The notes beneath the pieces are model-generated. The model had not been told where the DNA came from, made no database searches, and saw only the letters and a program-made list of their open reading frames with translations. Positions 1 to 56,812 of a DNA stretch of 64,000 bases are shown piece after piece. The position numbers and the translations under genes are program-made. The DNA comes from Takakia lepidozioides. Lineage: Eukaryota; Plantae; Bryophyta. The stretch's first letter is position 1. Every line of letters begins with the position of its first letter. Location of the stretch: positions 27,280,001 through 27,344,000 of the forward strand of contig CM060733.1 in the NCBI GenBank assembly GCA_030704615.1, in the 5' to 3' direction.

Positions 1-99
1 TCAGCCCATTCTCCTTCTAGCTCTTCAGTAGGGCTAGCTTCTACTCAGAATGGTTTGGCCAGGCTCCGCCTCTTCCTGCGTGATCACAAGGACGATCCC

Positions 100-16650: not shown

Positions 16651-19600
16651 GTGTGTCATGAAGGTGTCAAGGCAGTAGCCCTTGTGGTGAAGTGACACCA
16701 TAATTTACGCTCCCTCTATATTTATTTATTTGCTTGAAAGTTGTGGTCGTTCGCCATGCTCGCATATCTGCAGACTGCAACACATCATTCAGAGTTTGAA
16801 GCTTCTGCAAATTTGTGATGTAGTTTTCCGTGTGAATCCTGTAGAGCACAAGAGGGATTGTGGAGCCTCTCATTTTAAGATAATAGTGTCTTCAATGGGC
16901 ACGTGCGAGGTGGCCGGTGGGCCCCACGCACGGACGCCCGGCTCCCCCCACCCCGGCCGCCCGTCCGCCGCGCAGCCAGTCCCCCGCCCATGAGTCTGCT
17001 GCCCAGCAGTCTGCCAGTCCGCCAGTCTGCCCGCCAGGCCGCTGGCTAGTCCCCTGCCATCCACCCGCTGACGGCGCAGGATCTCCACCGTCCGTTCCCA
17101 TAACCCATCCGAGCCCTCCATTTTTAGGGCTGCGAAAATGGCAATGATCTTGCCACCAAATCCCGGCCGCTCTCTTTTGACGGCTCTTTGTTGTCCGATG
17201 TTGCGGTAGGCGTTTCCATGCACGCGACTGTTCCTCTTTTGCGCGCGATGTTCATGATGATGTTGAAGCGTGTGCTTGAACATGAGAGGACTGTCTCGGC
17301 ACTACAGCCACCGTTGTGCATATGCTTCCACTATTTTTGCCTTCTTGTTGTGCTTTCGGGAACCTTCGTTTTATGGTGTGGTTCTATGTCATAAATATGG
17401 AAAATGTGGACATCTGTCCTCGATAACGTCCTCTGCTTGTGATCCGTCATGATACGTTTAGCCCCTTCGTACTACATCCCTCATGAGAGCCTTCACAAGT
17501 TTAGTTCGTTAAAGGAACCCATGGGTAACATGGGCGCGAAAATGGCGGAAACGTATGCACATGGGGGCGTGTATTGCAGATTTCGTATCGGACGATGGGA
17601 TTGTTTATGTGACCAAGTATAGTGGCTTGCATCCGTCGTGCATAAGTTGTGGAAAAGGGTGGAGAATATGAAGAAACCCAGCTTTGTGATGGATCCACAT
17701 GGTATTATATAAGGGATGGCAACACAAAAAAGCAATACGAGTCGTCACGGAACACCATCCAGTCCTAAGGTCCTCAAACATCTACACGTACCTGTTGAAT
17801 GCAGATGTCTGAGCCACAACGGGAGTAGGTGCATAATCGGTACATTGTCGCATTTGCCAGGAGACGGACCAGGCTGAGACAATTGCATCTGCAAATGTGC
17901 ATGGATGTTTGAGGTCCGTTGTGCCGTGAGTCTGTTCGCAGTGGGTCCGCTGGCCCGTCAATGCTCTGGATATTCCCCTTATCGCGTGCATAACAGTCAG
18001 TTTGGAGGCGGTCTATGGGAAGTCCGTCTGTTCAGTTTGTCGCACTGTGAATTTGTCTGTTGTGTCGGAAGTCTGTCGCAGTAAGTCTGTTGGACTTCTT
18101 ATTTTCCCTCCGATCAGTCTTTTGGCTTGTTCTCCCGCCAGTCTAGCGAAACGTCCGTCTGTTGAACAGTTCTTCTCTATGGATATCAGTATGTTGGACT
18201 GTGCATGCATCATTCTGTTGTGCCGCGAGTTTGTTCGCAATGGGTGTGTTCGACTTTCCTCTTCTCCCTTTACTCTATTTTGTCTTCATTCCGCCCGCTT
18301 CTTCGCAAACCAGTCTGCTGAACTGGAGGTATGCTAAACAATCGTTCCCTGATGATCTGTTCGCCTGGTACTTTGTTAGTCTGTTCTACTGCCAGCCTCT
18401 TTGTAGTGTGTCCGCTGGCAGGGAAGTGCCTCCAATATGAAGCCGCTTCGCCTCAGCAAAGCGAACAGTCCGCTGGATTGGCGGTTCGCTGGACTCTCGG
18501 CCCGATGAGAAATGAGTTTGTTGCACGTGCGAGGACTGTGGATGAATTTAGTACGATGCGTTCGTTCGGTGGACGTATTCAATGCGATGACGACGGATAG
18601 TGGGCGCCTGTGAAATCGCGTCACGTTGGCAGTGCCATGCCCACTTTCCCCCTTCTACTTCTACTTTCTTCTCATGTTCCCTGTGTTGACTCCATTCTCT
18701 TCGCGCCTGTTTCTTCGCATTGTTTCGTTTTCCTCTTTGCGTTTCCATCACCGTAACAAAAGATGACCGTTCATCCCTAGGTGTAGAAAGTCGCGGTGAG
18801 CCACGAAGCGTCGCAAACACGCTCACCTTCGTAACAACTCGAAGTTCATCGGCTCGGTGAGCTTCTGACTTGCTACGGTGTTTCCATTCCATTTTGTGTC
18901 CTCTTTTTGCTTAGGGTGAGTCTTTTTTTAGGACTTTTGTCTGTAGCTCATTGTCCTTGCACCCTCGTTTCATTCTGCAGCAATGGAGGATGCTTGTGAA
19001 AAGGGTGGAGCGGACTGGGTGGATTTTGTGCACCAAACCAGACTGAAGAAGGAGCGAAGGTACTGGTACTCACCAGAGGAGTTTGATCATAAAATAGTGG
19101 AAGCATTTGTAGACCTCCGCGCCCGGAAGCCCAAAAACTCGAATTGGCAGAAGGACAAGCTCTTATGTCCCTTCTGTGAAGAGGTTATCAATGACAAAAT
19201 CCAACTAAATCGGCATCGTGTTGACATGGGTTGCAAGGAGACTGTTGCAACGATTCCACGGGATTTCAAGCCTTGGCCGATACTGAAAGAAATGTCGATT
19301 GTCAAAGAGGCCACAATGCGCATGCGCAGATCAGTGCTTGATCCCCGCACTTTGGAATTAGACGAAGTGCGCGCATGGTATGGCGTCCATTCTACTGGCT
19401 CGTCAATGGAGGATGTGCAAGTGTAGGGAACGCCGGACGCTGCCAGAAAACGTAAACAAAGTGATGGGGCCCAAAAAAAGGAGAGGCAAAAAAAGGAGAA
19501 GGCTGCAAGATCTGCTCGCGAGGCAAGGGCAAAATCCACACAACAGACTGAACCCCGTCCTGGGCGGCAGACCCACACCATTAGCACTGATACTGAAAGT

Positions 19601-20504
19601 GAATCTGCTCCAGGGCGGGCAAACCATTATCCGGAATGATGACTTCGAAGGCCTGGAAATGGTGACAAGTCCAGTGGATATTGACTTGCCTGACCAGACT
19701 GGGCAGTAGACTCATACAAATATGGCAACCCATGCCAGAGGTTTAGGGTCAAAACCAAAAACTCAACAGAGCACTGAAGGGCCAGTCTGCCCTGGCACAT
19801 TGCGTCTCGTTGACTTTGGGTTTTTCCCACCAGAGTGCCCACCAACTGGGGATCCAGACTTCTTCCGTTATTTCTACAAAGTTGCCCAGTCAGGTCTGCT
19901 ACGCACATTCATCCGACAGGCGGAACATAACTGGTTGAACAGCTTTGAAGATGAAGATGACGATGAAGAAGTAGAGGAGGTAATGGTCAGTCTGACCGCC
20001 CAGTCTATTCTCTGTGCTGTTTGAGTCCATCATGGGGGGTCACATTGTCTATTCAGTCTGGTCAGTCCGCTGGCTCAGTCCGCTCATCAGTTAGTCTGTT
20101 TTATATCGCTGCATTACTTACTAAGTCCGTTTGTCAGTCCGCCAGTCCAGTCCGCTGGTCCAGTCTACTAACTGGCTCCACCATACGTACACACGATATG
20201 TCTGTGAGTCTGTTGGTCTGTGAGTCCAGTCCGCTACATGAGGTGAATATAGAGTCCACGTCCATGTTCCTGACGTCCAAGTTATCTGCCGTGTACCAGG
20301 ATGAACGTGTTTCAATTCGTAGGGCCATTCAGGCTTGGCGGATACCAAGCAATGATGCTCTTTTACAAGTGACTGCGGTGCATGCGGAAGTGGACCGCGT
20401 ACGGGAGTACATATTATTGAAGTATCCTGGGTCATCTGCTGCTATATCGGCATTACATATTCAAGACACGTCGGGGGGGGAATGAGTCTGGGACAGCTGA
20501 GTAT

Positions 20505-20672
20505 GCCATCCAGCAGACTCCCATTCAGCAGCCTGTCATCCAGCAAACTCCAACGGAGCAGACTCCCAACGAGCAGCCTATCATCCTGCAGACTCCTCTC
20601 CAGGATCCCATCATGCAGCCCATGCCAATGGGAAGACCTGTCATCCAACAGACTGCGGACCAGCAGACTGCC
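20505..20672 (+). repeat. Degenerate 15-bp tandem repeat (encodes IQQTP-like units)
   Basis: ccatccagcagactc / ccattcagcagcctg / tcatccagcaaactc / tcatcctgcagactc and related units. Confidence 0.7.
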
Positions 20673-20684
20673 TTTCTCCCACAT

Positions 20685-21407
20685 TGTCGCGCACCTCACT
20701 TCAGTAAGCTCCCCTTCAAATCATAGTTACTCACTTTGATGCACGCGCCTAACTCCCAACCTGGCCGCCGGGCCAACTCGGAGCTTCGGCTGCTCACCGG
20801 GACATGACGGTCCCCTTTTTTCCCCCAACAGACCCTCCACCAATTTGGCCCTAGTGGAAATTCCCTTCGGTAGATGGCAGTCCGGAATAGCTCCCCACTC
20901 CTTGGTCGCTTTCTGGCTCGCTCACTTACTCACTAGTTTTTGGTCACCAACGGGCTTGCACCGTTCTCGGGGTTACTACTCCCTATATATACTTCTGTGA
21001 CTGTCCGCGGGGGTTCCACAAACAACACCATCCTTTTATGGCAAACCACCATGAAGATCCTCAATTTCCGGTGATGAGTCGCGGTGAGTCTTGGCCCACC
21101 CACCACGGCCCCATTGGACCGTGATGAGTCCCAAGACTTCCCACGACTCCCACCACAAGATCTCCGCCCCATGGTGAGTCCTATACCACCCCCACCAAGT
21201 CCCGCTAAGCTATCACCACCCCTCGTGGAACCACCCCACCGCAACCCGGTGTGCGGGGCTCCACCTAGTGAGCGCCTCCGCCTCCTTGAGTGCCTTGAGC
21301 ACTCAAGAGTGCTTCAACCCCCGCATCTATTGTTGCCACCGCCCCCACCACAAGGGCAGCCCCTCTCGTGTCCCGACCCCCTGCCGTAAAGGCAAAGGGC
21401 CGCGACA
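20685..21407 (-). repeat. 3' LTR of the chromovirus
   Basis: Direct repeat of 34035-34757; about 94% identical over the first ~260 bp by hand count, mostly transitions. Confidence 0.92.
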
Positions 21408-24400
21408 CACACCCCTACCAACAGGGAGTCGATGTCCTCATCGACTTGTCCATTTTGTAGAAACGAACATCCAAGTTGTGGCGTCCCACATCAAGGAGTT
21501 TGTTTCCGTACCATGGCCCCACTCTCCACTAGCTAGTTCGGCCGACTTACTCCAAGTCCCGGCCAAGGGTGGAGCCTCTCAAGCTCCTCCCAGTGCACTC
21601 TTCTTGGCCCACTTTATGGCCAAGGAACGATCCTCCCCGAGGATCGAATCGCCTTATTGCAACAACATTGCTTGCGACCCCTCATGATGTCGCTTTTGGC
21701 ATCACCTTGAGCAAAGGTTCACCTTGAACCCTTTTTGACTAGGAAGATAACCTTGAACCAACCGTGCGCCCCAATCACTACAATTGGGTCCGCCTTGGAA
21801 TGTTGGCCTGAGGTACGGGAACACGCCGAAGCCGCACTACGACTTCGTCCCGAGGCTACACGATTATAGTACGTGAACGGAAGCACGTAGCTTCCGCGTT
21901 AGCCCGCACTACAAGGCAACCCCCTCGGTAGCGCAGTTATAGTATGCGCACGCGTGAGGTGCGTACTAGCACGTGAACTCCCAAAGAAGGCGCAAGTTTC
22001 CTTGCCCCTTGGATGGGAGTCACCCGATTTCGGCACTGCGCAAACACACGATTAATCCAATTTACCTCTCCCACTTTTGTAAGCAGGTTGGAGGTGATGA
22101 CCAGCCAACCATAGGAGTGCTTGCGGTGGATGCAAGTACAGGTGTAGGCTATGTTAGAAACTTAGTATTCCAAACCATAAGCCGCAACAGGTTCTCTACC
22201 CGGTTACCTTGTGGAGAGGGGGTTAGGGACATGTTCATGACCGGTTGAGTGTCAACACGGAGGTGCCACTAGTTGCTGGGGACAGTTCCGGTTCGAGCAC
22301 TAGCAATACTAGTGGGTACACGAGACGAGGTGTGCGGTTTAGGCCACCTTCACCTCCTATGTCTTCTACGGAAGGTTCTGATTCGGATTGTGAATCAGGA
22401 GGACTCATACCGGCGGTGCAAGTTGTTTCTTTGCCATTGTTGTGGGACACAATGGAGGAGATGTATGGAGCTACCAAGGGGCCACGAAGGTACTCTGGGG
22501 CGGTGGGCACCATCGAGTTGGATGATTTTATCCAAGAGTTTGATAGTTGGTGTGATTTGCAGCAAATGCGCAATCCACAACTATTTACGCCTTTCATGGC
22601 ATGGAAGGGGCTGTTTCAGCACCTTGAGGGGCCGCCTATGGATGATTACCATGAGTTCAGGCGGGGGCATGAGGTTGAGATCGAGGAGTGGAGGATGTAC
22701 TGGTCACCCGACTATGTCTCCATCACTAGGGGCACTAGAGCCACGAGGGCAGTGGCTACACCTGCCGCTGCACCGGCAGCTTCAGCAAGTAGTAGTGGGA
22801 CTAGTGGGACTGGTGATACAGTAGCTACGACGTCCACCCAAACCACTACCACACCAGCACTAGCACCCGTGCCTGCCTTCAACCGTGTTGTGGAGTTCTT
22901 CGAAGAGTTGAGAGGGAACTACCAAGGACAGAGAAGTTGCGGAGCTTGCAAGAGTTCCAACGGAAGCCGACCGAGAGCTTGAGGGAGGCTTTCACTCGCA
23001 TGAGGCGCTTGATAAATGTAACCCAAGGGGTTACGGAAGCTCAGGCAGTCCAATTCTGGTATGGGATATTGGATAAGGAGCCGAGGAGAAGGGTGCGGGA
23101 GGCAACTCTCCTACAAGTGGCCCAATCCACCTTAGCAAATGTGTTTTTGCTGGCAGAGCAGATAGAGCTCAACATGGTGGAGGAACGAGTGGTCATGGTG
23201 GGATTTGCTAAGGAGACACCACGGGGTAGTGGTGCTCCTAGCCAACCACTACCTCAACGTGCTCAAGGCAACAAGGGGGCTCAGGTGAAGCTCAGGGAAG
23301 GGCAGAGAGGACCTCAGATGCATGGGTCTCTCCCTTCATTTGCTGGCCAACAACGGGCGGATGTGGTGTGCTGGACATGTGGAGGACCCCATGTCAAGAA
23401 GGATTGCCCAGAGGGAGGCAAAGGGCCGGCACATGCACAGCCTGCACAGCTGCAGTGTGGGCATTGTGGCAAGCACGGGCATGGAGAGGCCCAATGTTAT
23501 GGTTTGCATCCTGAGTTGCGCCCAGGCCAGTTCCAAGGGAACAATGGTGGCCGGGGGCGAGGTGGAGCAGCCCAGAGAGGATGAGGTGGCCAGCCACGAG
23601 GTGCAGGCCAAGGGCCAGCTCAACATGGCCAAGGACGCGGAGGTCAGGGGGTTGACCAAGGCATGGCCAACCGGCTTCAGCAGCTAGAGCAGAGGCTCGC
23701 TGCCATGGCTATAGCTCAGGTGGTACCGGCTCTAAGGCCGGATGGTCCACCTCCTGCTCCTGAGGGAGGAGATATGGGAGGCATGGGATTCATGTGTGGA
23801 GCAGCACTACCACTAGTGCAGGTGGAGTCTGCTGCAGCCGTGACTCGAGGAGCAGCACAAGTTCCTGAGCCACGAGGTGCAGAGGTGGAGTTGGATCCAC
23901 AGCGTGGGGAGGCAAGCCGTCAGGCTAGGCTTCCTCAGTCATTCACATTGGCAGAGACAGTGTCGACGCCATCCATGGCACCTAGTTCTCACCCGACTGT
24001 TACCGAGGCGGAGGTTACTATGCCATTGGGGAAAGCTACACGGGTAGCACCACTACCTAGTGTTGCCAAGGCTACGGCAGCTAGTGTGCTGCTAGGAGCG
24101 GCCACATCTGTGTGCCAGGCTCCATTGTTCTCGGCTACCATGATTGCGACGCCGGGGGTAAGACCAGCTGAGGTGTTCAGGCTGGTAGCTACATCCTGTG
24201 AGAGTGGGGAGGTTACTTCATCTTCTGCGGAGATAGTGGGAGGTGTAGTGCCGGAGGGATCCTCGGATTTGAGGGTCAAGACTGCCACGGCGGCGCCATG
24301 GCAAGCTGCAGCTGCCAGGTTGATGGAGCTGCCAGCTAGGCCAGCCATTGAGCGCGCCATGGTGACACCTGGAGTTGTCATGTTAGACAACTAGGATGAC

Positions 24401-25170
24401 ATTTTCTGTTTGAGTGGACCGGCAGGCAAGAGGTACCGGCCACTGCGGGTCTTGTTGGACTCGGGAGCTCAGCCATTGATGCTGGGCAGAGCTGCTATTG
24501 CAGGCTTGGGCCTCACGGAGGCGGATATGGAGCCTTGTCCTTTCCAGATACAGACATCTCTGGAGGATCGGAGCAGGCTCGGGGTATGACACGGCGTGAG
24601 TTGGCTATCAGACTACGGCCGGATCACCCTACAGATGGCTCAGTGATGCGAGCCAAGGCCATTGTGACAGACGCGGTCTCATACAATGTCCTGGTTGGTG
24701 GGGCAGTGTTGTATCCCATGGGCTTCACCCTGGATTTTTGGGAGGAGTCAGTTTCCTATAGGCCTGCAGGGCAGTCAGGGGAGGGCCGGCGTGTGCAGCT
24801 CCCTGTGACGTTCATAGGAGGAGTTGCGGTTGCCCAGTGAGGCAAGATGCCAACACTAGCAGCATTCACAGCGGCAGTGAGTTGGCCTAGAGAATTGCTT
24901 GAGGGCAACGCTCATTCAGAGGATGTGCCACCTCCGGGAAAACATGATGACATGTATGGTATGGCGGAGTTGCCTACCATGGTTGCTCAGACTCCATTGT
25001 GGGGCACGAGCAAGGATTTGCAGCGGGATGCTGATCGACGGGTGCAACAAGCCTGGGTGGAGGCTTTTGTACCGTCAGGAGAGGAGGAGAGTGCGGGGAT
25101 TGCACCAGGACCACCTCAGTTGTCTCCATTGGACACCACAACTATTGTGTGGCAGTATCCGGATGAAGGC

Positions 25171-26106
25171 ATTTGTCTTCTGGACTTGTTTGGTGGGATC
25201 AGCACCGGATTGGCTGCTGTGTTACAGGCAGGTGTACGAGTTCGGCGTTACCTGTATGTGGAGAGGGATGAGACTGCACAACGCGTTTCACTTTGCCATG
25301 TTGCTCAGTTGGTGCAGCGGTACCTTGAGTTGTTGTCGGTGTCTGCAATTCGTGGATATCAGCAGGCCTTGCCAGCAGACATTTCGTTGCTGAGGGCGCA
25401 GGATTTGGAGCGGGTTGGCTCCATTGATCTGGTAGTGGCAGGTTGGCCCTGCCAAGGGCATTCATCAGCCGGGCATGGCAATGGATTGCGAGACTCGAGG
25501 TCGGGTCTGTTTTGGGAGATGGTGCGGGTTTTGCGCCACTTGCAGCTTCATCAAGCTGTATCTCCAGCATACATCTTGGAGAATGTGCCACTGATGGGCG
25601 ATTCTCGGGCTAGGGTGATGGCCAGTGTGCATCAAGTCCGGTCATGGCTTGGGTCAGCAGTGTTGCTAGATGCAGCTACAGTGGGGTCACGGGCTCATCG
25701 TCCACGGCTACGGTGGACTAACTTGATGCCACCCGCACTGCTCAAGCGTGCATTTGATGGGGTGCAGCGGCCAGCACATCTCACAGTGGATAGCATTCTG
25801 GACACAAGGAGGCAGTCTCAGCGTGTGAGACACGATGACCGTTCGCCTTTGGCAGTGGTCAACAAGGTGGGTCAACCACGAGCAGCATTACCTACACTAC
25901 TCAGCTTTCCAGGATCGCATGCTTTCCGGAATAGTGGACTTGGCCTCCTGTGGGATGCTCAGTTGCAGCAGTTAGTGGAGCCTAATGCTGACGAGCGTGA
26001 GCGGGCAATGGGTTTTACCACTGGTACCACGGCGGTGTCGTCTCTTTCTGAGGCATCACGTCATCAAGTGTTGGGGCAAACAATGGATCTCAATTGCTTG
26101 ACCTAG
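25171..26106 (+). other. C5 cytosine methyltransferase domain inside Pol
   Basis: Motif I LLDLFGGIS, II YVERD, III ADISLL, IV GWPCQGHS (catalytic Cys at 25450), V GLRDSRSGLF, VI ILENV, VIII SRAHRPRLRWTN, IX ERERAMGF and X VLGQTMD, in canonical order. Confidence 0.93.
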
Positions 26107-29100
26107 ATTATCACCTTGGCTCTGGCTGAGCAACGCAGAGTGCGGAGTACACTTCCCTCGATTGTCTCTCTGCCTACCGAGACGGTACAGGCAGTGAGTG
26201 GGGGCGAGCATGTGAGGACCACGGGGTGCATGCATCCATGGCACACGTGGGAGGTGCTCGAGGTTCAGAGGGAGTTGGCAGCCAAGGCGGCTGTGATGGA
26301 TGAGGTTGGGGATTCTTCTCGGGTTGAGGAGGTCCTCAAGGATGAGATGATGGGGCAGGATGAGGCCTTGTCATTGACTGAGCAGGCAGGGAGTACTGCT
26401 CAAGAGGTTACAACATAGCAACCACTGGACGCGTCCTCTACCTCTAAGCCCACTGGACTTAAGGTTGCAGTTACGGAGGACAATTGGGAGCCTGACATTG
26501 GACCCATTGTTACCGGAGGAGAGAGACGACGTATACGGCGGTTCCTGAGGGCTTACAGGAATTGCTTTGCCTTCAGTTTGAAGGACTTGGGAGCACTGAA
26601 GGGTCAAGAGATCCATATTGAGTTGGCCACTGACACGCCAATCTTTCGGAGACCCTATAGATACAGTGACATGGAGAGGTCTTTGATTCAGATTAGGACT
26701 CAAGATCTCTGGGATGCAGGTTTGGTGGAGCTCTCTGGTGGAGAGTATGTTTCAGCCATAGTGATGCCAGCCAAGAAGGATGTCTATGGCAATTGGACGG
26801 AGAGACGTATGTGCGGTGATTACCGGCTTGTAAATCGTCAGACCAAGTCCGATAAGTATGCCATGCCAACACCGAGGAGATCTTTGATGCCATCGGCATG
26901 CTAAGGCCTTTAGCACTTTGGATTTATGATCCGGATATCACCAGTTGCCAATCAAGGAGGCGGACAAGCAGAAGACGACATTCTGGGGGATCAATGAGCA
27001 CGGCAAGGATTGCTTATATCAGTGGCGGTTCTTACCATTTGGGCTTAAGAATGCTCCTGCAGAGTTTCAGAGAGTCATGGATAGGATTCTAGCAGGGGTG
27101 GACTTTGCTCGGTGCTACATAGATGACATCATCATCTTTAGTGTTACGATGGAGGAGCATGAGAGATACCTTCAGGTGGTATTGGAGCGCTTGAGAGCGC
27201 ACGGATCGAAGTTGCATCCGGGGAAGTGCAAGTTTTTCCACAACCAGATTGAGTATCTATTATAGACGGTTTGTCAAGGGATTTAGTACCATTGCAAAAG
27301 CTCTAACCAAGCTAACCAAGGTGGACCAGGAGTGGCAGTGGGAAGATGAACAGGAACGAGCTTTTCAAGAGCTCAAGGCGAGGTTGACCTCGGCGCCTAT
27401 CCTGAGACGACCTATCAGAGGGCGTCTCTTTCAGCTGCATACGGATTGGAGCATGCTGGGGCTTGGAGCGGTGCTCACACAGGTGGATGATGAGGGAAGA
27501 GAGTTCGTAGTGGCTTATGCTAGCTGCTCGAACAACGCTGCAGAGGCTAAGTACAGCTCATATGAGGGAGAGTGCTTAGCTGCAGTGTGGGCCGTGGCAC
27601 ACTTCAGGTGCTATCTATACGGCAATCTTTTCACCCTTGTCACGGATCACCAGCCACTCAAGTGGTTGATGGAGTCAGACAAGCTTACGGGGAAGCTTGC
27701 ACGGTGGGCACTCATACTCTAGGAGTATGACTTTCAGGTTTTGCATCGACCGGGTTTGGTCAATCGGGATGCGGATGGATTGAGTCGCAATCCATGCATG
27801 AGCCAGCAGGATGACACTGGAGCTCGGTGGCATGGAAAGACGGACGAGGAGATGGTGCCGGGATGGCACGCATCTGTATTTTTGTGTATCTTGGCATCGG
27901 GAGGTCAGGTTGGACCTACAACAGGGATGACTGTAGATGGAGTGTCTGAGGACCCTGAGGCTAGTGATGAGCCAGGTGGTGCCAGAGATATACATGAGGA
28001 TTCGGCTGTGTTGGACTACCTCCGCACGGGAGACATGTCAGCCACTGTGACTGCCAGGGAGAGGGATCGGATCATGCAATGAGCCAAGAGGTTCAAGTGG
28101 GAGGGGATACACCTACTTCGAGTGTGGGAGGATGGTCGGGTGAGGATTGTGCCTCACCCCACACAGCTTGCACGGTTAGTGCGGCATGCCCATGAGGAGT
28201 TGGGGCATTTTGGAGTGCGACGCACTCACAGTTTACTGCAGGGGCAGTATTGGTGGCGTGGTATGCATACAGAGGTGCAACAATTCGTGGCTAGGTGCAT
28301 GGTATGTGACAGGGTGCGTGCTTCATTCAACGCCCCTACACCATAGTTGCATCCTTTACCAATCATGGGATTGAGCTACAGGTGGAGTCTTGACTTCGCA
28401 GGGCGTTTGCCACTGACTATGCGCCACCACAGATATGTGTTGGTGATGGTGGAGCACTTCTCCAAGTGGATCGAGTTTGTTCCATTGCCTGACAAGGCTA
28501 GTGAGGGGGCTGCATATGCATTCTTGGATCGTGTGCTTAGCCGATTTGGTGCTCCAGCTGAGGTACTCACGGACCAAGGGAGAGAGTTCTTAGGGGAGTT
28601 TCAGGCTTTGTGTGATAAAGCCTTGATAGACCACCGCACCACTTCTCGGGATCATCCTGAGGCCGATGGCTTAGCAGAGAGAGTTGTTCAGACGGTGAAG
28701 AGGGGTTTGCGCAAGTATGGCTTGCAGAAGGGACACCTAGGAGATTGGGATCTTCAGGTTCCTTGGTTAGCCATGGGCTACAGGTTCAGCAAACAAGCAT
28801 CACTTGCCTCCTTCTCACCATATTTCCTTCTCTTTGGCCGAGAGCCGGATTTGCCTGCAGCCATTCGTAGGGACACTGCTCAAGTCCTTAACCTTGACGA
28901 TCCGGACGTGTGGGTACGTGCATGTGATCAGCGTGCAGAGTTGTTCAAGAAAGTCATGCCCATGGCTTTTGAGAACCTTGTCATTTCACAGCACCGTGAT
29001 ACGTTGAGGTATGCCACTATACGTGGTGGAGGATATCATCCTGGGGTTCGGAGGTTTAGCCCTGGTGACTATGTTTATTTGCAGCAGACTACTCCAACGA

Positions 29101-29288
29101 CTCTGGATATTACTGCAGGGTGTGTTATTCTGAGGGTTCGAGAGGTGTTCCCCTCAGGGGTCCTGATCTTGGAGGGTCGGGATGGCATGACTTGGAAGGA
29201 CCATGTGCGTAATTGTGCGCCATGTCACCTTCCCAATGTCGATGGCAGAGTTGACCCAAACTTGGCAGTGGTACCTGCAGGTTTGAGG

Positions 29289-29432
29289 TGCATGCTCTGT
29301 GGGTCTGCCAAAGGGGCAGCCACCATGCTGGTGTGTGATCGATGCTCAAGGGGTTGGCATATGGGATGCTTGACACCACCTCTTGAGAAGGTTCCTGACG
29401 GAGATTGGTTGTGTCCACACTGCTTGGGATAG
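29289..29432 (+). other. PHD finger at the integrase C-terminus
   Basis: CMLC..MLVCDRCSRGWHMGCLTPPLEKVPDGDWLCPHC is a canonical C4HC3 PHD, in frame with the integrase core (ORF 28347-29432). Confidence 0.92.
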
Positions 29433-29897
29433 TGGCAGTGGACATGACTGGAGGCAGCTAACAAGACATGGGAGGCCAAGCTCATAGGAGTCAATACATG
29501 AGATCCCAAGCTCAAGTTCACAGGATGCAAGACGGCGACTAATGATGGGGCAACTCTTGCACCCGGCCTCTTGATCTATCGAGTTTGAGTGTAGTAGGGA
29601 TAGTGGTGGAGGACTTAATGAGGCTATTGTCACTATCACATCTTGTGGCTACCTAGACTTAGAGGGACCTAAGCACCAGCTAGGGGGGCGATTGTGTGGA
29701 CTAGTGACTGCCATAGTGGGCAGCATAGTGGCAGCCTAGTGACTGACTAGTTGTAGCCTAGTGGTTGGACTAGTGGCTGGACTAGTGGTGGACTAGTGGT
29801 ATACTAGTGTGTGGTGTGCACATGTGTTGTGTGGTTTTGGATAGCGATGTAGTTGTGTAGCGATATGTATGCGCACGACACAAGGTTGATGTCCCCA

Positions 29898-32800
29898 TCA
29901 ACGCTTCTTCCGCTTTTGAGGTCGCCCTTCGAAAGCTGCAACCGCCTCGGATGCGTTTCCCATTTCTGAGGCACGCACCCAAGATGCCTCCACATGATGA
30001 TAGCCCTTCCATTTCACGAGATACTCCGTTTCTCAATTCTTGAACCACCTCGACTTAAGCACTGCCTCCACCTCGTACTCAGGTTCATTTTCATGATCTA
30101 ATAGCACAGGTGGTGGACGCAACACTTGATGCCGATTCGGACGCGCTTCATCTTTGAAGTAAGGCTTCAAAAGGGAGACGTGGAATACCGGATGCACCTT
30201 GCTATTTGCCGGCAGCTCCAATTCATACACATCCTCATTCATAACCTTCCGGATGCGAAAGGGTCCCGCATACGGAGGTACGAACTTCGGACCCACTTCC
30301 GGAGGTAGTCGAAAATTCTTGATATTCAACCAAACCTCCGTATCTGCCTCAAACTTGACTTCCCTCCGCTTCCGATTTGCCTGCCGTTCATACTGTTTCC
30401 TAGCTTTGGCGATGTTGTACTTTGCGAGCTTCAACAAGCGTTCGCGTTCCTCCAACACAGCTGCTGCTGCCGGTTCCTCAACGTCTTGGGCAGCCCAACT
30501 TGTCGGCACTAGAGGTGCTTTTCCATAGACCAATACGAAAGGGAAAACACCCGTTGCGGAGTGTTTTATGTTATTATAACATAACTCTACCGCTTCCAAG
30601 TGCTCCACCCAGTCCGATTGGTCCGCCGACACGTAATTCCGCAAGATCTGCTTCACCACGGAATTCACCCTTTCCGTTTGGCCGTCCGTCGTAGGTCAGA
30701 AGGCGGTGCTCATCTTGAGCCTCGTCCCCATCTTCTTCCAAAGTGCCCTCCAAAATTTACTTGTAAACTTTGGATCGCGGTCCGAGACAATATCCTTCGG
30801 GAGTCCATGATGTTTCAAGACGTGGGCGAAGTAAAGTCGCCCCTTCTCCTGTGCCGTTGCCGTCTCCTTGGTGGGGGCCATCTCATCCTTCCGGTAAGCC
30901 TTCCGGATCTTCCTTTGGAGCGCCGTCTCGCCCCTGTACACCAGCAAGAGCTGCTGCTTTCTACTTAAAGCATCGGTCACCACATTGTCCCGTCCCAGTT
31001 TGTACCGGATATCCACGTCGAACACCGCCAAAGTATCTTGCCACCTAAGTTGTTTTGGGGACAATTTAGGCTGCGTGGCAAAATACTTCACCGTGACATT
31101 GTCTGTGAATACCTTCACTGGGTTGGAACCAACATAGTGGCGCCAAAGTTCAAGGCAATGCACCACCGCCTTCATCTCTTTCTCGTGCGTCGGCCACCAT
31201 CGCTCCACTTCATTCAGTTTCTTACTTTCGTAAGTCACTGGACGTCCATCTTGCATAAGTACACCCCCAATCGCGAAGTCCGACGCATCTGTATGAATCT
31301 CAAACGGACGGTCGAACTCCGGGATTTTCAAGACTGGAGCTTCCGCCATCCGCTACTTCAACTCGGCAAAAGCTTAGCCACAAAAGGTGTTCCATACCCA
31401 TACCTTGGATTTACACAGAAGGTCTGACAGCGGCCCCGCGATCTTGGCGAAATTTCTCACATACTTTCGGTAATAGGAAGCGAGTCCTAGGAAGGATCGC
31501 ACTCCCGGGACCAAAGTCGGAGGCTCCCAGTCCAAGATCGCCCTCACCTTTCTGTCATCCATTTTGATCCCATCCTGTGTAATCACATGCCCTAGGAACT
31601 CCACTTTTGTGACCCCGAATTCGCACTTTGAAGCTTTGGTATATAGCTTCCCTTCCCGCAATTTCTGGAACACCCTTTTGAGGGGCTCCATGTGCTCTTC
31701 CTTTGTTTTCGAGTACACCAAGATGTCGTCGATGTACACGATTACAAAGTCATCCAACCACTCCTGAAAAAGACTATTCATTAGCGTGCTAAAGGTCGCG
31801 GGTACGTTGGTGAGGCCAAAAGGCATCACCAAGAACTCATACGAACCATATCTTGTCCTGCACGCGGTTTTCTCCTCATCTCCTTCTGCCACTCGGATTT
31901 GATGGTAGCCGGAGCGCAAATCGATCCGGCTGAAATACTTCGCTCCTGCCAACCGATCAAAGAGGTTGTTGATTCTTGGCAAAGGGTACCGGTTCTTGAT
32001 AGTCACCTTATTCAGAGCCCTATAGTCGACACACATCTGTAGCGTCATATCTTTCTTGTCTGCGAATAGCACCGGGGCTCCGTAAGGTGACTTACTCGGC
32101 CGGATGTATCCATTTGACATTAGATCCTTGAGCTGAGTCTTCAGCTCGACCAACTCTCTGTGGCTCAACCGGTAGGGCACCTTGGCAGGCGGCTCCGATC
32201 CCGGTAACACCTCAATCTTGTGGTCAATTCCCCTTCGCGGTGGCAAGCCGCTTGGTAAATCCTCCGGCATCACATCCTGGTATTTCTCCAAAATCCCCTT
32301 GATCCAATTTGGGCTCGGCTCCCCATCGCCTTCTCCATTCACTTGTCTTACATAAAGCAAAAATTGGGGCTCGTGTGACTCCTCCACGACCCACTCCCTT
32401 GCTGACAGAAGGTTTAGTCGCCCTCCCACGGGGTTGGGCGTTTTCAACACTCGTAAACTTCGCCACCATTCCCACATGGTATCGTGACTACTCTCTTGTG
32501 GCCATCTATGACCGCTCTGGGTCATCCCCAAAATGAGATCCACTCCATCGATCTCGCAAATGGTGAAGTTCTCACGTCCCTCCCAACTCCCGAGCTGAAG
32601 AGGAACATCGAACGCCAATTGTGGTTCTCCTTTAGCAGAACGCACCTCAATAAAGGCCCCCACATCACTTGTCGGGAGTCCCAGCTTCCGTGTTGTTGCC
32701 GGTGTCATGAAGGAGTGCGACGCTCCAGTGTCCACCAACAACGACACGTTAGTTCCGGAGATTATCCCACTCACAAAAATTAACTGACTCCCTTTACGCA

Positions 32801-33905
32801 AGGCGTCAGTTTCCTGATACAACTCACAAGAGTAGTTGTCTACCTTGCAAGTCTTGGCGACCACCGCCTCCACCAAGCGGTGGATGGAAGCTTCGGACAA
32901 CTCCGTGGTTGCCCGAGTCATGTTCAATTGTCGGGGATTTGTACACTTCTTGGCTATGTGCCCGGGTTCCCCACAATTGAAGCACACTCCATCGAAGGTC
33001 GCCTTTTGTCCGCCATAAGGCGTCGCACCTGATTTTTCTTTCGGAGCACCGGGTGTCGTCTTGGCGTGTGAAGGCCCTCCCTTCGATTTCCACGTGCCGT
33101 TGTCGCCGCGTGGCCTATCCCACTTCTTTTCCGGTCGAAATGAGTCACCCTTCCGCGGGGTCTTCTTGTGGTTCAGCTCCGTACGGCCTTGTCTTTCGCC
33201 CTTAGGGACATCCGAAAAACATTCAGCCCTCTCAATTGCCTCGTTCAAAGTCTTAGGTAGCTTCTCCTCCAACTTCCGTCTGGCCCATGGGGCCAGTCCC
33301 GCCACAAAGTTGAAGACCATTTCTGGTTCTACCATGTCCGCGACTTTGAGCAACAACACATTGAAAGCCTGAACATATCCCCGAATGTCATCCGTTTGCT
33401 TCAGATTCCTCATCTTGTCCCGGGTGAGCCAAGACGCGTTGAGGGGCACAAGCTGTTTCTTCATCAGTTCCTTGAACCCACTCCAGTTCAAGGTTTCTGG
33501 GTTTAGACCTCGGTCGTGAAGGCATCTCTGCCACCATTGTTGAGCATAGCCCCTCAAATAGGTGGGAGCCACTTCCACCCGATCCTCGTCACTCAACTTG
33601 GCCACCCGGAAGTACTGCTCTACCTCCAAGAGCCAGGTGTTGAGTGCCTTCCGATTTCGGACGCCCTCGAAGATGTCGGGTTCCTTAGGCTTCACCTTAA
33701 ACTTTGCCTTAGTGGAAGTGGCATTAGCCGCCTTCAATACGTCTTTCAACGTCCCGCCAAACTGCGCCAACAACCCTTCCCAGAAGGCTGCTGGCAGGGG
33801 AGGCATCTGTTGGTCTGTCAGAGCTCTCATAGATTCCTCCCGTTCTTGAGTGGCCCCATTTTCAAAAGCATGCATCGCTTCCTCAAATGACCGCTTCGGT
33901 GACAC
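29898..33905 (-). pseudogene. Chromovirus gag-pol with C-terminal chromodomain
   Basis: Zn knuckle [14 protein letters not shown], protease [19 protein letters not shown], RNase H HTDASDFAIG, integrase with its N-terminal half deleted (junction at about 30880), GPY/F motif, and chromodomain EYEVEAVL..YLVKWKGY..SW ending at TGA 29898. Confidence 0.9.
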
Positions 33906-34034
33906 GTCGCCCCTATCGGGCTCACCAAGATCATCATCTTTCGGGCCGTTCCGCTTTCGCTTTGGCTTCCCGACCCCATGATGAGGCCGATCCCAAGGAT
34001 GATCGTGTACTGAACTCTAGGCTCTAATACCAAG

Positions 34035-34757
34035 TGTCGCGCATCTCACTTCGGTAAGCTCCCCTTCAAGTCATAGTTACTCACTTTGATGCGCGCGCCT
34101 AACTCCTAACCTGGCCGCCGAGCCAACTCGGAGCTTCGGCTACTCACCGGGACATAACGGTCCCCCTTTTTCCCCCAACAGACCCTCCACCAATTTGGGC
34201 CTAGTGGAAATTCCCTTTGGTAGATGGCAGTCCGGAATAGCTCCCCACTCCTTGGTCGCTTTCCGGCTCACTAGCTTACTCACTAGTTTTTGGTCACCAA
34301 CGGGCTTGCACCGTTCTCGGGGTTACTACTCCCTATATATACTTCTGTGACTGTCCGCAGGGGTTCCACAAACAACACCATCCTTTTATGGTGAACCACC
34401 ACGAAGACCCTCGATTCCCGGTGATGAATCGCGGTGAGTCTTGGCCCACCCACCACCGCCCCATTGGACCGTGATGAGTTCCAAGACTCCCCACGACTCC
34501 TACCACAAGGTCTCCGCCCATGGTGAGTCTTATGCCACCCCCACTAAGTCCCGCTAAGCTACCACCACCCCTCGTGGAACCACCCCCACCGCAACCCGGT
34601 GTGCGGGGCTCCACCTAGTGAGCGCCTCCGCCTCCTTGGGTGCCTTGGGCACTCAAGGGTGCTTCAACCCCCGCATCTATTGTTGCCACCGCCCCCACCA
34701 CAAGGGCAGCCCCTCTCGTGTCCCGACCCCCTGCCCTCAAGGCAAAGGCCCGCGACA
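34035..34757 (-). repeat. 5' LTR of the chromovirus
   Basis: TG...CA repeat of 20685-21407, adjacent to the PBS at 34021-34033. Confidence 0.92.
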
Positions 34758-36324
34758 CACATAACACGGCTCTTTTTGCAATCTGACGATCGCCATCACC
34801 GGTAATTCGACCCGGAGCTGAAGACCTCACACTTCCCCGGCTTAGGGTGGGAGAAATTAATCCCCATTTGGATTGGCATAATGAGCTCCACCGGATTGTT
34901 GCGGACCGCCGGTGGTCATTTGTACCCTTTCATTATTCCATGGAGTTTTCTGCTGTTGCCATTGAAGCCACAACCGTCCAAAATGCGCTGCCTCTACTTG
35001 TGCAGCTGATTCTCATGGATAACCCACGGCCTGAAGACCTCAGACATATGCCTATGGCACATCCAACCTTTGGGGTGCGAAGAAAGCATTTGTTCGGATT
35101 GACTGAGGAGGACTTTGAGCGCATGACAGCTTCCTTCCTACAACACAGATGGATGCAAATTTGGCAATTTCCGCTCGTACAGCAAGTTGATGAAGGATCT
35201 ACATAGTTTGAGGATGGACTTGCTCCATGGAACATACCATTCACAGAAGTTTGTGGTGGATGACGCATTGCAGTGGTTTGCATTGGTGATGGAGTGAGCA
35301 GTATTCAACATTGTTTTGCAGAATCTCAATGTCTTCAAAGTCCTGTGGTGTGGGACCCCAACTGAAGACCGCATCAGCGCCATTGCTCATCTCGATGGAG
35401 CATGCTTGATGCCCCCATATAAGCCTCATTAACATAACATTTGATATGTTGAATATAGTATTGAAAAATGGTCACTGGGTGAGGGTGGCCTCATTCAGAT
35501 CCACAATTATGCTTGACCCACTCCCAAGAGCCTGCCCCCACCTACCTCATGGCCAATTGTTACTATCAACGATGCCCCTTGTACATTTTTGTATGCAATT
35601 TACATGTCCAACATCCCAGAGCATGAATGGATAACACTACCTTGTTTTTGGACGTGTTTGAAAAATTTGGGTTCCATCTCACCGCGAGGAGCAATCAACT
35701 CCTCCCCATCTGAATTCACTCAATTTTTCTTGGCATCTTCGTCACCATCTCCATCGGCTCCTTCTTTTGTTGCCACTTTCTTGACTGCATTTTTTCATGG
35801 TATGCTAGCTCTTTTGTTTGGAGTAGGGACCACAATGATTTCCACATCATCATATTCATGGTCTTGGGGATTATTAGGGATTGCACAGCCGACCCTTCTC
35901 TTTCACCCTACCTCTCTCTCATCTCCCAGGCCCTCTGCCAACTATGTTGTGGCGAGTCACGACCAGACCGGGATCTTCAAAAGGTGACATTGCTGGCAAA
36001 ATCTCCATTGTTGCATCAATACTTTGTTGTAATGGCTTGTAAGCACATGCGTGTTGAGACGTGCCGGTTGAAAACATCTCATCTTCCACATTGCTACCTT
36101 GATGAACAAAGAAAGAGAGACTTTGTGATCCTGCTGTCACATAAAAGCTCCTTGAAAAGTACCAGTGATGATGATATTTTGTAAGAATATTATATTTTAA
36201 TCATGAACATCTTAGGCCGGAGTGCGAGAGTTGGGTCCCCAAAACAAGAGGTATCTTTTTCATTGGGCTGGCTCAAGAAGTTGCTGTCAAAACTTATGCT
36301 ATGTAGGTGCCATGTAGGCGAATG

Positions 36325-38857: not shown

Positions 38858-40136
38858 GCCATATACAATACAAAGGACACGCTTCTGAACCTGCAAGAAA
38901 CGCGCCGCAGTACCCAAGACACGTAATGTGCCAGGAGAACAATGCGCACGTTCGTGGCTGTTGGCAAGCGGCAGACTGCAGGGATAAAGGTTTGAATTGC
39001 AGCCCTAAAAATGGAGGGCTCCGATGGGTTATGGGAACGGACGGTGGAGATCCTGCGCCATCAGCGGACTAGATGGCAGGGGACTGGCGGGCATACTGCT
39101 AGGCAGCGGACTTGCAGACAAGGGCAGCGGACTCATTGGCGGGGGACTGGCCGCGTGGCGGACGGGGGCGTGGGCGGGGCGGGCGCAGACGCGGTTGCTG
39201 CAGCCGCGCCCACGGCTGGCCGACCGCGCGCAGCGGCAAGTGGGGCGGACGGAGCCAGGCGTCCGTGCGCGGGCCCACCGGCCACTTGGCACGTGCCCAT
39301 TGAAGACGCTATTATCTTAAAATGAGAGGCGATTGTGGATCCCTAGCAGATACACAAATTCGAGAGACCTGTCAAGAGCAAAGAGTGAAGATTCTGATCA
39401 CACATTACGAACACACGTGCATGTTCCCACTCTCATAGTTTAGGCTCCCCAGAAAACCCAATCATTTAGTGAAGCCTGCACGGACACTTTATTCATCCAT
39501 ACTCATCTGAACTGGATGGATTCGTCTTGAGCCAAATGCTCTTTCGTTCATTATGTGGATGAGAAGCAGGTGGTGGTTGAGAAAATGAGTGCGGGCCTAA
39601 TTTTGGTCCTGTCACCTTGTCTTATGCCAACACTAACAAAATAAAGTTCTGGCAGCTGACGTGTGATAGAGGAATAAGGGAATCATTTTCTCCAATGAAA
39701 GATGGCCACCTGGCTGTTTAGATTACGTCTTATTTTATATAGAAAGCATTCTCGGGGCTTGGGCTCTCGACAGTGGGAGTTGGTGTGCTTGGTGTGCGTT
39801 CCGAAGGTCCCTGGAACTGACGAGGGGCCTTGCACGGCAACGGATGGCATCAGTTCCGCATGTGCCCCGCAGAGAGGCGCCATAAAAGCTGTGCGAGGCA
39901 AACCAGCGCTTGAGAAGCGAGTGTACAAGTGGTGTGATGTTTCGCTGCGGAGCTGCCCGGGAGTTCGACATCCGTTGCTTTGCTGTGGATTACAGCTCGT
40001 GATTTTGAGAAGTGGCTTTGCAGACTTTAGTGTACGGCATTGCGCAGGGTTTGTGGACAGCAGAGCACGAAATTGATCCAAATTGATGCGGAGAGAGGGA
40101 TAGAGATCGAGGTGGATAAAGTAAGAGGAGAGCGAG

Positions 40137-44779: not shown

Positions 44780-50097
<5,318 letters not shown>

Positions 50098-55843: not shown

Positions 55844-56812
55844 TGAAAGGGAGTTACAAGCGGGTAATGGTGGCTGGTTGGCAGGTCCCTCCCTACTTTG
55901 GGCTCCCTCCCTCTCATGCAGAATCTGCTATAACAGAAGCCAAAGGGGCCATCTCATTAACCCCCAATTGTATCAAGAATTAAAAAAATTTAAAGAAAGA
56001 GAAGATACTTACCAGTGATGATCAATGTGGGCTGGTTGGCGGGCCCCTCTTTGCTTGTGCTCCCTCCAATGTAAAATCTACCCTAGTGGAGCAAGGGCTA
56101 TCAGCCCCTTGGTATATCATCAAAGAAAACAGGAAATAATAATAATAAAAATAATGATGATCAATGATTACCATGGACCAAGGGGCCTGGTTGCAGGTGG
56201 GCCCTCCTTACTCGTCCTCCTTACCTCTTGCACCACATGCCATAGCAGAAAAGGAGGAAGCTGATTAGCTTCATGGTGAACTAAAGCTAAAAACAGTAAA
56301 ATAACCAAAAGTGGTGGATGCTTACCAACGTCACTAACTCTACTTGCTACAGCATTGATATCCACTCGATTGCTTAGATCATTCTCTTTTGAAAAGCCCT
56401 CTCTAGTAGCTGAACAACACTTGGAGACGACTGGATGACTAAATTACTGACAACCAAGACCAGGTTGACTTTCAAGTGAAGACAGCCAGAATGCAGTGCC
56501 ACGTGGAGTAGCCAGAAACTATGAACGAGAGAGCCCCTGAAGGAGAGGATGGAAGAGACGGGGGGATGGCTGCTCACATACCTCCTCTCGCCAGTCAACA
56601 TTGTTCAAGATTCTCCGACACACAGCGAAAAGAGGAACACCCTTGTACAAAACCTACATAAGCACCTTATTCAGCTCCACTTGCAGCTATCCTACCATCC
56701 CACAATAGAACTTCTTGGAAATGAACAGTGCGGAGACCCCTCTAATTTGGTGCAAATCAATTCTGCCAATACAATAACCCACAGAATGGTGAACAAAAGA
56801 AAAGGGGGTTAC

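Follow-up and report, generated by a model that had tools for sequence, protein, structure and literature searches.

We analysed a stretch of 64,000 nucleotides from Takakia lepidozioides (the window; assembly GCA_030704615.1, contig CM060733.1, positions 27,280,001 to 27,344,000 of the forward strand), whose plus strand carries a 361-residue open reading frame (ORF) that starts with an integrase core and ends in a PHD finger. It is near certain that this ORF encodes the integrase core, the C-terminal domain and the PHD finger of a high-copy Ty3/gypsy retrotransposon equipped with a DNMT3-like methyltransferase, of which the window holds a dead copy that has lost its 5' end. Our preferred reading, which we consider probable as a whole, is that the ORF is the integrase-PHD part of a dead Gypsy-DNMT3 copy and that, in working members of the family, the finger tethers the integrase to the unmodified tail of histone H3. 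The tethering component taken separately, which is predicted from the residues of the finger, we hold to be about evenly balanced between true and false. The PHD finger itself is a trait of the family and is not private to the window copy.

The integrase frame and its PHD finger

The frame occupies 28347-29432 of the plus strand, where the translation gives 361 codons without a stop, closed by a TAG at 29430-29432. Pfam recognises an rve integrase core at residues 12-104 (E 3e-13, 50.3 bits against a cut-off of 32.6) and a PHD, PF00628, at residues 315-359, which correspond to 29289-29423 (E 6.1e-11, 42.6 bits against a cut-off of 24). The DDE triad of the core is formed by D16, D76 and E111 (at 28392, 28572 and 28677), with a spacing of 59/34. 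The eight zinc ligands of the finger (C315, C318, C330, C333, H338, C341, C356 and C359) make up a C4HC3 pattern, and no second pattern of this kind was found in the six frames of the 64-kb window. The integrase zinc-binding domain lies outside the ORF, in the preceding piece at 28083-28343. An earlier note on this DNA had described an unbroken ORF with a DDE core and a PHD; its coordinates, frame and domains hold, but the word "unbroken" is true only of the last piece of an element that contains nine in-frame stops and four frame changes.

The AlphaFold2 model of the ORF, for which an alignment of 50 relatives was the input, has a mean predicted local distance difference test score (pLDDT) of 68.9. 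The integrase core is modelled with values of 80-94, a five-stranded SH3-like domain at residues 242-292 (about 29070-29222) with values near 80, and the PHD region (residues 311-361) with values of 82-88 and two short strands, zinc being absent from the model. The best Foldseek matches of the whole model are the integrases of prototype foamy virus and of Ty3; this search is dominated by the integrase core and is uninformative on the PHD.

The finger stands after the SH3-like integrase tail, as does the chromodomain of the chromovirus into which the element is inserted (29904-30032, minus strand). Pfam finds no Chromo domain in the plus-strand element, which has the PHD instead. The claim of the earlier note that the PHD sits where the surrounding chromovirus carries its chromodomain is thus confirmed by the domain order of both elements.

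Conservation of the PHD finger in the family

With a threshold of E<=0.001, the 361-residue ORF has 560 relatives of similar length and 385 longer ones; the conservation counts rest on the 240 relatives listed. The PHD is present in every one of the 197 that reach the region, which settles in the affirmative whether other copies carry it. All eight zinc ligands are retained in 180 of these, and in the other 17 the finger aligns with one or two ligand substitutions or with a truncated end, which is what decaying genomic copies should show. The remaining 43 of the 240 stop before the PHD, mostly as the record ends, and 30 have no residues past the aligned part.

The named relatives include Calypogeia fissa (79% identity), Marchantia polymorpha, Sphagnum fallax and Klebsormidium nitens, together with the chlorophytes Haematococcus, Pleodorina, Tetrabaena, Volvox and Chromochloris. 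The top matches overall reach 81-82% identity, and the closest named ones among the relatives listed are from liverworts. In the closest clade the PHD is the extreme C-terminus of the protein, and in many other relatives it is followed by about 95-175 residues. The nearest neighbours in the Protein Atlas, which we used as leads only, are exclusively PHD clusters labelled Streptophyta or Chlorophyta.

The source species carries the family as a highly repetitive sequence: in run X1, 83,169 contig pieces with at least 90% identity fall on 7.5 kb, a count taken only as a sign of high repetitiveness, as contig depth was not read as copy number. A complete ORF with reverse transcriptase (RT), RNase H, integrase and PHD is present in a transcript assembly (P0124), and the end of the window ORF is spanned continuously by contigs from independent runs. 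Contigs of run X11, whose status as RNA is a guess, match 26044-28095 and 28567-29696 with about 92-95% identity, and no conclusion is drawn from them.

Ligand class of the PHD finger

The best 60 of 98 matches to solved structures in the PDB include CHD4 PHD1 and PHD2, KDM5B PHD1 (E 2.5e-13), PHF12, KDM5A PHD1, ATXR5 and DPF2/3, and further MLL3/4, PHF21A (BHC80), WSTF, BAZ2A/B, ORC1b, UHRF1, KAT6A/B and AIRE; no chain of the ING, BPTF or TAF3 type is among these 60. Apart from the five PHDs named in the next sentence, we take the matched PHDs with known ligands to be likewise readers of the unmodified H3 N-terminus or of H3 unmethylated at lysine 4 (H3K4me0). Those of KDM5B, BHC80, AIRE, DPF3b and UHRF1 are described as reading this unmodified terminus or H3K4me0 (PMC4225485). 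A parallel that the earlier note drew with the PHD-like ADD domain of DNMT3 is strengthened by these matches, the nearest solved PHDs being readers of unmethylated H3K4 or of the unmodified H3 tail, which is the same mark that ADD reads (PMC4225485).

In the complex of KDM5B with the H3 peptide, D308 contacts K4, D328 forms a salt bridge with R2, W351 belongs to the A1 pocket, and the strands of L324-L326 pair with the peptide (PMC4225485). The HMMER alignment places A311, D331, W354 and the M327-V329 region of the window ORF at these positions. For the family as a whole, residues were counted in 181 intact fingers: the Asp after Cys3 is found in 170 of them, the position two before Cys7 is Trp in 167 and Phe in 13, and most have Met-Leu-Leu just before Cys3. 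The residue two before the zinc-binding His, with which the cage Trp of BPTF and ING2 presumably aligns, is Gly in 173 of the 181 and aromatic in none. For the cages of BPTF and ING2, W32 and W238 are named in the literature (PMC4225485). Judged by these positions, the PHD has the hallmarks of a binder of the H3 N-terminus without a methyl-lysine cage.

The methyltransferase and its pairing with the PHD finger

The plus-strand element also contains a DNMT3-like cytosine-5 methyltransferase, in a 421-residue open piece at 24841-26103 (Pfam PF00145, E 2e-13). Its nearest solved chains are the catalytic domains of DNMT3A and DNMT3B (E 4e-10), and its motifs I (FGGIS), IV (PCQ) and VI (ENV), as well as RAHRPR and ERERAMGF, are intact in the window. 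Among the relatives that cover both sites, 63 of 68 keep the catalytic Cys and the EN of motif VI. The closest named DNMT relatives are about twenty Marchantia gene models (55-67% identity), a Sphagnum model and KFL_009030040 of K. nitens. The Marchantia polymorpha models (P0242-P0258), about twenty "hypothetical proteins" with lengths of 950-1,330 residues, represent gag-CCHC-DNMT or DNMT-RT-RNase H pieces of the family, and could be mistaken for host DNA methyltransferase genes.

A search of the 270 proteins collected with a profile of the DNMT domain revealed two arrangements, with the DNMT either before the RT (streptophyte clade) or between RNase H and integrase (chlorophyte type). Fifty-eight proteins possess RT, RNase H, integrase and PHD. 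The DNMT is present in 27 of them (25 between RNase H and integrase and two before the RT); another 29 begin less than 400 residues before the RT, where an upstream DNMT could not show; and two lack it, one with an unexplained gap of 352 residues between RNase H and integrase and one with 617 residues before the RT. In N-truncated integrase-PHD proteins with at least 350 upstream residues, the DNMT directly precedes the integrase in 19 of 21 cases. In both arrangements the PHD invariably comes after the C-terminal domain of the integrase.

The co-occurrence of PHD and DNMT that the earlier note envisaged across copies and species is therefore seen among the relatives, in 27 of the 58 (with 29 indeterminate and two without) and in the 19 of 21. 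Its further suggestion, that a chromatin reader and a DNA methylation writer are combined in one polyprotein, is right in that both lie in the same gag-pol frame and the DNMT motifs are kept, but the window copy is dead and truncated.

In the chlorophyte-type relatives (P0163, P0184, P0194, P0200 and others), RNase H and the zinc domain of the integrase are separated by a DNMT-like domain of about 320 residues. Most of these domains give no PF00145 match or one below threshold, yet they usually retain the catalytic Cys and the EN; motif IV is variant in a few (ECQ, SCE).

We built a maximum-likelihood tree of the integrase-to-PHD region with 147 rows. A protein was admitted if it had BLAST matches to the zinc domain, to the core and to the PHD, which excludes fragments such as the Marchantia and Sphagnum models. 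Of the rows that have no DNMT between RNase H and integrase, all but three fall in one clade of 55 rows (SH-aLRT, the Shimodaira-Hasegawa-like approximate likelihood ratio test, 97), which holds the window sequence, both proteins with the DNMT before the RT, and the Klebsormidium and Calypogeia rows. The 46 rows with the RNase H-DNMT-integrase arrangement are all absent from this clade, and the rows named as chlorophytes are outside it. Because the tree is midpoint-rooted only, the direction of the DNMT rearrangement is not settled by it.

Possible roles of the PHD finger

According to our preferred reading, the PHD of working members would bind the unmodified H3 N-terminus on nucleosomes, and methylation of K4 (or R2) would block the binding. 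The finger would thus link the intasome to the nucleosome and may guide integration as the chromodomain does for chromoviruses, which predicts insertions biased away from H3K4-methylated promoters. The DNMT could then act on the cDNA or on the newly inserted copy and methylate it, an idea put forward by de Mendoza et al. 2018. Tethering to H3K4-unmethylated chromatin is the best-supported role because the nearest PHDs read unmodified H3, the contacts to A1 and R2 are kept and there is no cage Trp. The mechanism put forward in the earlier note, targeting of integration by H3K4 state, is plausible and agrees with ideas already published.

Several observations weigh against this reading. The position of the K4-contacting D308 of KDM5B is Ala (A311) in the window copy, and so is that of a loop Glu (E321 in KDM5B); an Asp three before Cys1 is found in only 74 of the 181 fingers and not in the window clade, and 51 of the 181 have no acidic residue in the loop between Cys2 and Cys3. 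With the acidic residues that contact K4 missing or variable, it is uncertain whether the finger tells methylated from unmethylated K4, most of all in the bryophyte clade. The window copy is unable to make a polyprotein, and its single insertion inside another transposon is uninformative on preference, because both elements are very abundant. Finally, the DNMT stands immediately before the integrase in the chlorophyte-type arrangement, which would allow the finger to work for the DNMT instead.

This last possibility can be formulated as an alternative in which the PHD mainly serves the methyltransferase, as an ADD-like reader on H3K4-unmethylated nucleosomes that promotes methylation of the element or of its surroundings, integration targeting being at most secondary. 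Host DNMT3 is governed in this manner by the PHD-like ADD domain, which reads H3K4me0; the DNMT of the element is DNMT3-like and the nearest solved PHDs are H3K4me0 readers. The tight co-occurrence of both domains in full-length pol (27 of 58) and in the N-truncated proteins (19 of 21), and the contiguity of DNMT, integrase and PHD in the chlorophyte-type arrangement, also speak for it. However, in the streptophyte clade to which the window belongs, about 1,000 residues, comprising the RT, the RNase H and the entire integrase, part the DNMT from the PHD and a protease is present, so that the two domains would probably be on different processed proteins. The PHD, moreover, stays on the integrase C-terminal domain wherever the DNMT is, and one relative (P0220) has a PHD and 617 residues before the RT but no detected DNMT, while several others have none between RNase H and integrase. 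This is the main alternative, and we consider it unlikely.

It is less likely still that the PHD is a structural or protein-binding zinc module, involved in intasome assembly, nuclear import or the binding of a host factor or nucleic acid, and not a histone reader. Some PHD fingers do bind non-histone partners, and the acidic residues that contact K4 are not conserved in the window clade. Against such a role, the residues that contact H3A1 and H3R2 (as described in PMC4225485) are kept, with the Trp in 167 and the Asp in 170 of the 181 fingers, as is the hydrophobic strand ahead of Cys3, with which the H3 peptide pairs, and the best 60 of the 98 PDB matches are all histone-tail readers.

A PHD that reads H3K4me3 and steers insertion to active promoters has precedents on both counts, as many PHD fingers read this mark and some retroelements prefer promoters. 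We nevertheless find it very improbable here: where the cage Trp would be, 173 of the 181 fingers have Gly and none has an aromatic residue, no H3K4me3 reader is among the best 60 of 98 PDB matches, and the insertions of the PHD-bearing element Gypsy-7a_cRei are intergenic 2.6 times more often than expected (PMC9940879). That the PHD is an accident of the window copy, either a captured host exon or an assembly chimera, has only the general frequency of chimeric gene models in its favour and practically no probability, being refuted by the 197 of 197 relatives across plant and algal lineages and by the continuous contigs of independent runs.

Relation to known elements

The novelty of the arrangement was overstated in the earlier note. 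A PHD in Gypsy elements and the idea of chromatin targeting are in print for Chlamydomonas (PMC9940879, PMC8557442, PMC6673714), and the association of Gypsy with DNMT3 is in print for Klebsormidium (PMC5890265). With PHD-bearing Gypsy and Gypsy-DNMT3 both already published, the pairing of PHD and DNMT is the more novel reading, and is unproven.

A DNMT3-like domain in the Pol of a Gypsy element was described by de Mendoza et al. 2018 as KnitGypsy-Dnmt3 of Klebsormidium nitens (PMC5890265); the acquisition is presented there as specific to the K. nitens lineage, and the enzyme is proposed to mark the new copy or the cDNA. The window element is of this type. By tblastn, residues 49-1567 of P0268 (KFL_009030040) match 24430-29159 in order, from DNMT to integrase, and the key DNMT residues are conserved in the window element too. 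The P0268 record ends about 70 residues short of the expected start of the PHD, and other K. nitens integrases of the window clade (P0009, P0048) end in a PHD. In contrast to KnitGypsy-Dnmt3, the window element comes from a land plant and its closest named relatives are from liverworts; in addition, the DIRS-like repeats reported for the Klebsormidium element (PMC5890265) were not found at the truncated window copy. The text and three supplements of PMC5890265, a coverage without Fig. 4c and the largest supplement, contain no mention of a PHD. The terms KnitGypsy, Marchantia and rve have no occurrence in those three supplements, the largest supplement and the figures lying outside this count.

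PHDs in retrotransposons, with the idea of guidance by chromatin, go back to Kapitonov and Jurka 2003 and to Perez-Alegre 2005 (REM1), as cited in PMC6673714, PMC8557442 and PMC9940879. Gypsy-7a_cRei of Chlamydomonas has a Gag-Pol with a PHD, for which an influence on chromatin and a minimisation of harmful insertions were proposed, and shows a 2.6-fold intergenic excess (PMC9940879). It resembles the window element in being a Gypsy with a PHD in its Gag-Pol, and the window integrase-PHD has chlorophyte relatives as well. It differs in that a methyltransferase is not listed among its domains in the extracts of PMC9940879, the comparison being by description only.

The chromodomain at the integrase C-terminus of chromoviruses was described by Gao et al. 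2008 (cited in PMC6673714 and 10.1101/2021.11.30.470311). Chromoviruses, of which the element surrounding our copy is an example, share with the window element a histone-tail reader after the SH3-like integrase tail, in an equal domain order. The window element differs from them in having a PHD and not a chromodomain, in its predicted ligand, which is the unmodified H3 N-terminus and not methylated H3K9, and in its additional DNMT. Among chromatin domains that are fused to transposon domains, PHD and Chromo are the most frequent (Grau-Bove et al., 10.1101/2021.11.30.470311). The EpiLTRs, which carry a chromodomain with adenine and DNMT4-like cytosine methyltransferases, are likewise elements with long terminal repeats (LTRs) that pair a histone reader with a DNA methyltransferase, but the family of the window pairs a PHD with a DNMT3-like enzyme; the same source names the streptophyte Gypsy-DNMT3 as a separate acquisition from EpiLTRs (10.64898/2026.05.21.726589).

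As for the readers of host chromatin, the PHDs of KDM5A/B (PHD1), CHD4, ATXR5 and BHC80 have in common with the window finger the Asp for H3R2, the Trp for H3A1 and the lack of an aromatic cage. They are, however, parts of host chromatin proteins and not integrase appendages, and KDM5B binds K4 through D308, where the window PHD has Ala. We found no literature that pairs the PHD with the DNMT, places the family in liverworts or Sphagnum, or gives the chlorophyte arrangement; Fig. 4c and the main supplement of PMC5890265, the REM1 paper and the Craig thesis were outside this search and may hold part of it.

Anatomy and decay of the plus-strand element

The element that ends in the PHD is a 5'-truncated, decayed copy of the Gypsy-DNMT3 type at 22085-29880 of the plus strand, with the order gag, CCHC knuckle, protease, DNMT, RT, RNase H, integrase and PHD; its ends were placed with contigs of DNA run X1. 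The gag region (22452-24562) was delimited by tblastn with residues 1-672 of Marchantia P0242 and has frame changes near 22925-22937 and 24550-24562. It contains a CCHC knuckle at 23456-23497 and a protease-like LLDSGA from 24452, both recognised by motif; for the protease, the Pfam match to Asp_protease_2 is below threshold (E 0.0075); the relative P0261 has a protease match between the CCHC and the DNMT. Downstream of the DNMT piece, RT (YIDD at 27116) and RNase H occupy 26897-27719 (RVT_1, E 3.5e-24; RT_RNaseH, E 5.7e-33), with a small deletion and frame change at 27257/27258. The N-terminal HHCC domain of the integrase lies at 28083-28343 (Integrase_H2C2, E 5.4e-17; HHCC pattern at 28185-28307), severed from the core by the stop at 28344. 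The Pol order of protease, RT, RNase H and integrase is kept, the protease being placed from the motif and the sub-threshold Pfam match.

Nine in-frame stops precede the final one, at 23582, 24392, 24838, 26104, 26416, 26927, 27720, 28080 and 28344, of which 27720, 28080 and 28344 are just upstream in the reading frame of the integrase ORF. Four frame changes occur along the homology path, and contigs of run X1 attribute two of them to small deletions at 22924 and 27257/27258. The element at 22085-29880 is a pseudogene without expected function. The stops at 23582 and 28344 are private to the window copy, as nearly all copies in run X1 differ at the first codon position; both are T-for-C changes, of the type expected from deamination of methylated cytosine.

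At 22084/22085, both sides continue otherwise, and consistently so, in other copies among the run X1 contigs, and this position is the junction of the 3' untranslated part of the chromovirus with the 5'-truncated element. At 29880 the flanking continuations are heterogeneous, and this is the 3' end of the element. Three repeat searches of the window yielded no LTR pair flanking the element; the loose contig ends show the copy to be 5'-truncated, which explains this, and the family may well have LTRs. No DIRS-like terminal repeats (A-coding-B-A-B) were found at this 5'-truncated copy either. The 727-bp repeats at 20685 and 34035 were considered as its LTRs and rejected, as the sequences resembling a primer-binding site and a polypurine tract fit the minus orientation only and the loose contig ends put the element inside these repeats. 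In the 3' untranslated part of the element, at 29690-29810, there is a run of short TAGTGG/ACTAGTGG-like repeats, which many run X1 contigs join at different lengths, so that its length is variable among copies.

The host chromovirus and the rest of the window

A chromovirus of the opposite orientation, which extends over 20685-34761 of the minus strand, harbours the plus-strand element in its 3' untranslated part, and the identity between the two elements over RT and RNase H is 30-37%. The LTRs of the chromovirus (20685-21411 and 34035-34761) are 727 bp long, 94.5% identical and have TG..CA ends; a tRNA-Met-like sequence that resembles a primer-binding site, TTGGTATTAGAGC, lies on the minus strand just inside 34034. 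An 880-residue frame at 34016-31377 encodes gag, protease and RT, domain matches place RNase H and integrase at 31352-30036, and the chromodomain follows the SH3-like integrase tail at 30032-29904 (Pfam Chromo, E 6.8e-9), all on the minus strand. An in-frame stop at 30033-30035 interrupts the integrase-chromodomain frame. The chromovirus looks complete and yet is decayed, it is very high-copy in run X1, and no matching target-site duplication was seen at its ends. On 20600-22520, which is mostly chromovirus (3' LTR and adjacent sequence) plus the first 436 bases of the plus-strand element, 30,596 contig pieces of run X1 were counted.

Directly to the left of the chromovirus LTR, at 20482-20656, there is a 15-base tandem repeat of about nine diverged copies, and the summed contig depth is about 30-fold lower to the left of 20665. 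Three pairs of inverted repeats, of 60-69 bases and 82-97% complementary, connect 16865-17133 with 38999-39330, about 22 kb apart. They bracket the nested retrotransposons and may be opposite copies of another repeat or the ends of a larger element. The host genes and a transposon remnant are located among 44964-46928 (minus), 40125-40751 (plus), 1-621 (plus) and 53489-55927 (minus). The host genes are a 655-residue pentatricopeptide repeat (PPR) protein with the start of an E motif, a cytochrome P450 fragment and an N-terminal dynamin fragment; a hAT dimerisation domain follows a 614-residue frame that itself has no Pfam match.

Significance

The choice of insertion sites by retrotransposons and the way in which they deal with host silencing are central questions of genome biology, for which tethering by chromodomains is the textbook plant example. 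The PHD described here is a different reader at the same integrase position, conserved in a large family of the green lineage and found nearly always with a methyltransferase that keeps its motifs. Our results suggest that the acquisition of DNMT3 by Gypsy elements, published as a "charophyte" event, is much wider and older than described; standard Pfam annotation overlooks most of the chlorophyte-type methyltransferase domains.

We tentatively advance a broader proposal, possible though more doubtful than not: a Gypsy clade with both chlorophyte and streptophyte members would have long inherited the integrase-PHD and the DNMT3-like enzyme together, as a single epigenetic toolkit, and the association would not be a capture specific to Klebsormidium. 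The toolkit would amount to host DNMT3 in split form, made up of a de novo methyltransferase and of a reader of the H3K4me0 type, which would choose H3K4-unmethylated chromatin both for insertion and for the element's own methylation. Toward land plants, the DNMT would have moved from the site between RNase H and integrase to one before the RT, and the family would then have become one of the most abundant repeats of the source genome. The family, which includes members in the model liverwort Marchantia, offers a natural system for asking whether an H3-tail reader encoded by a transposon steers integration and whether a transposon DNMT3 marks new copies.

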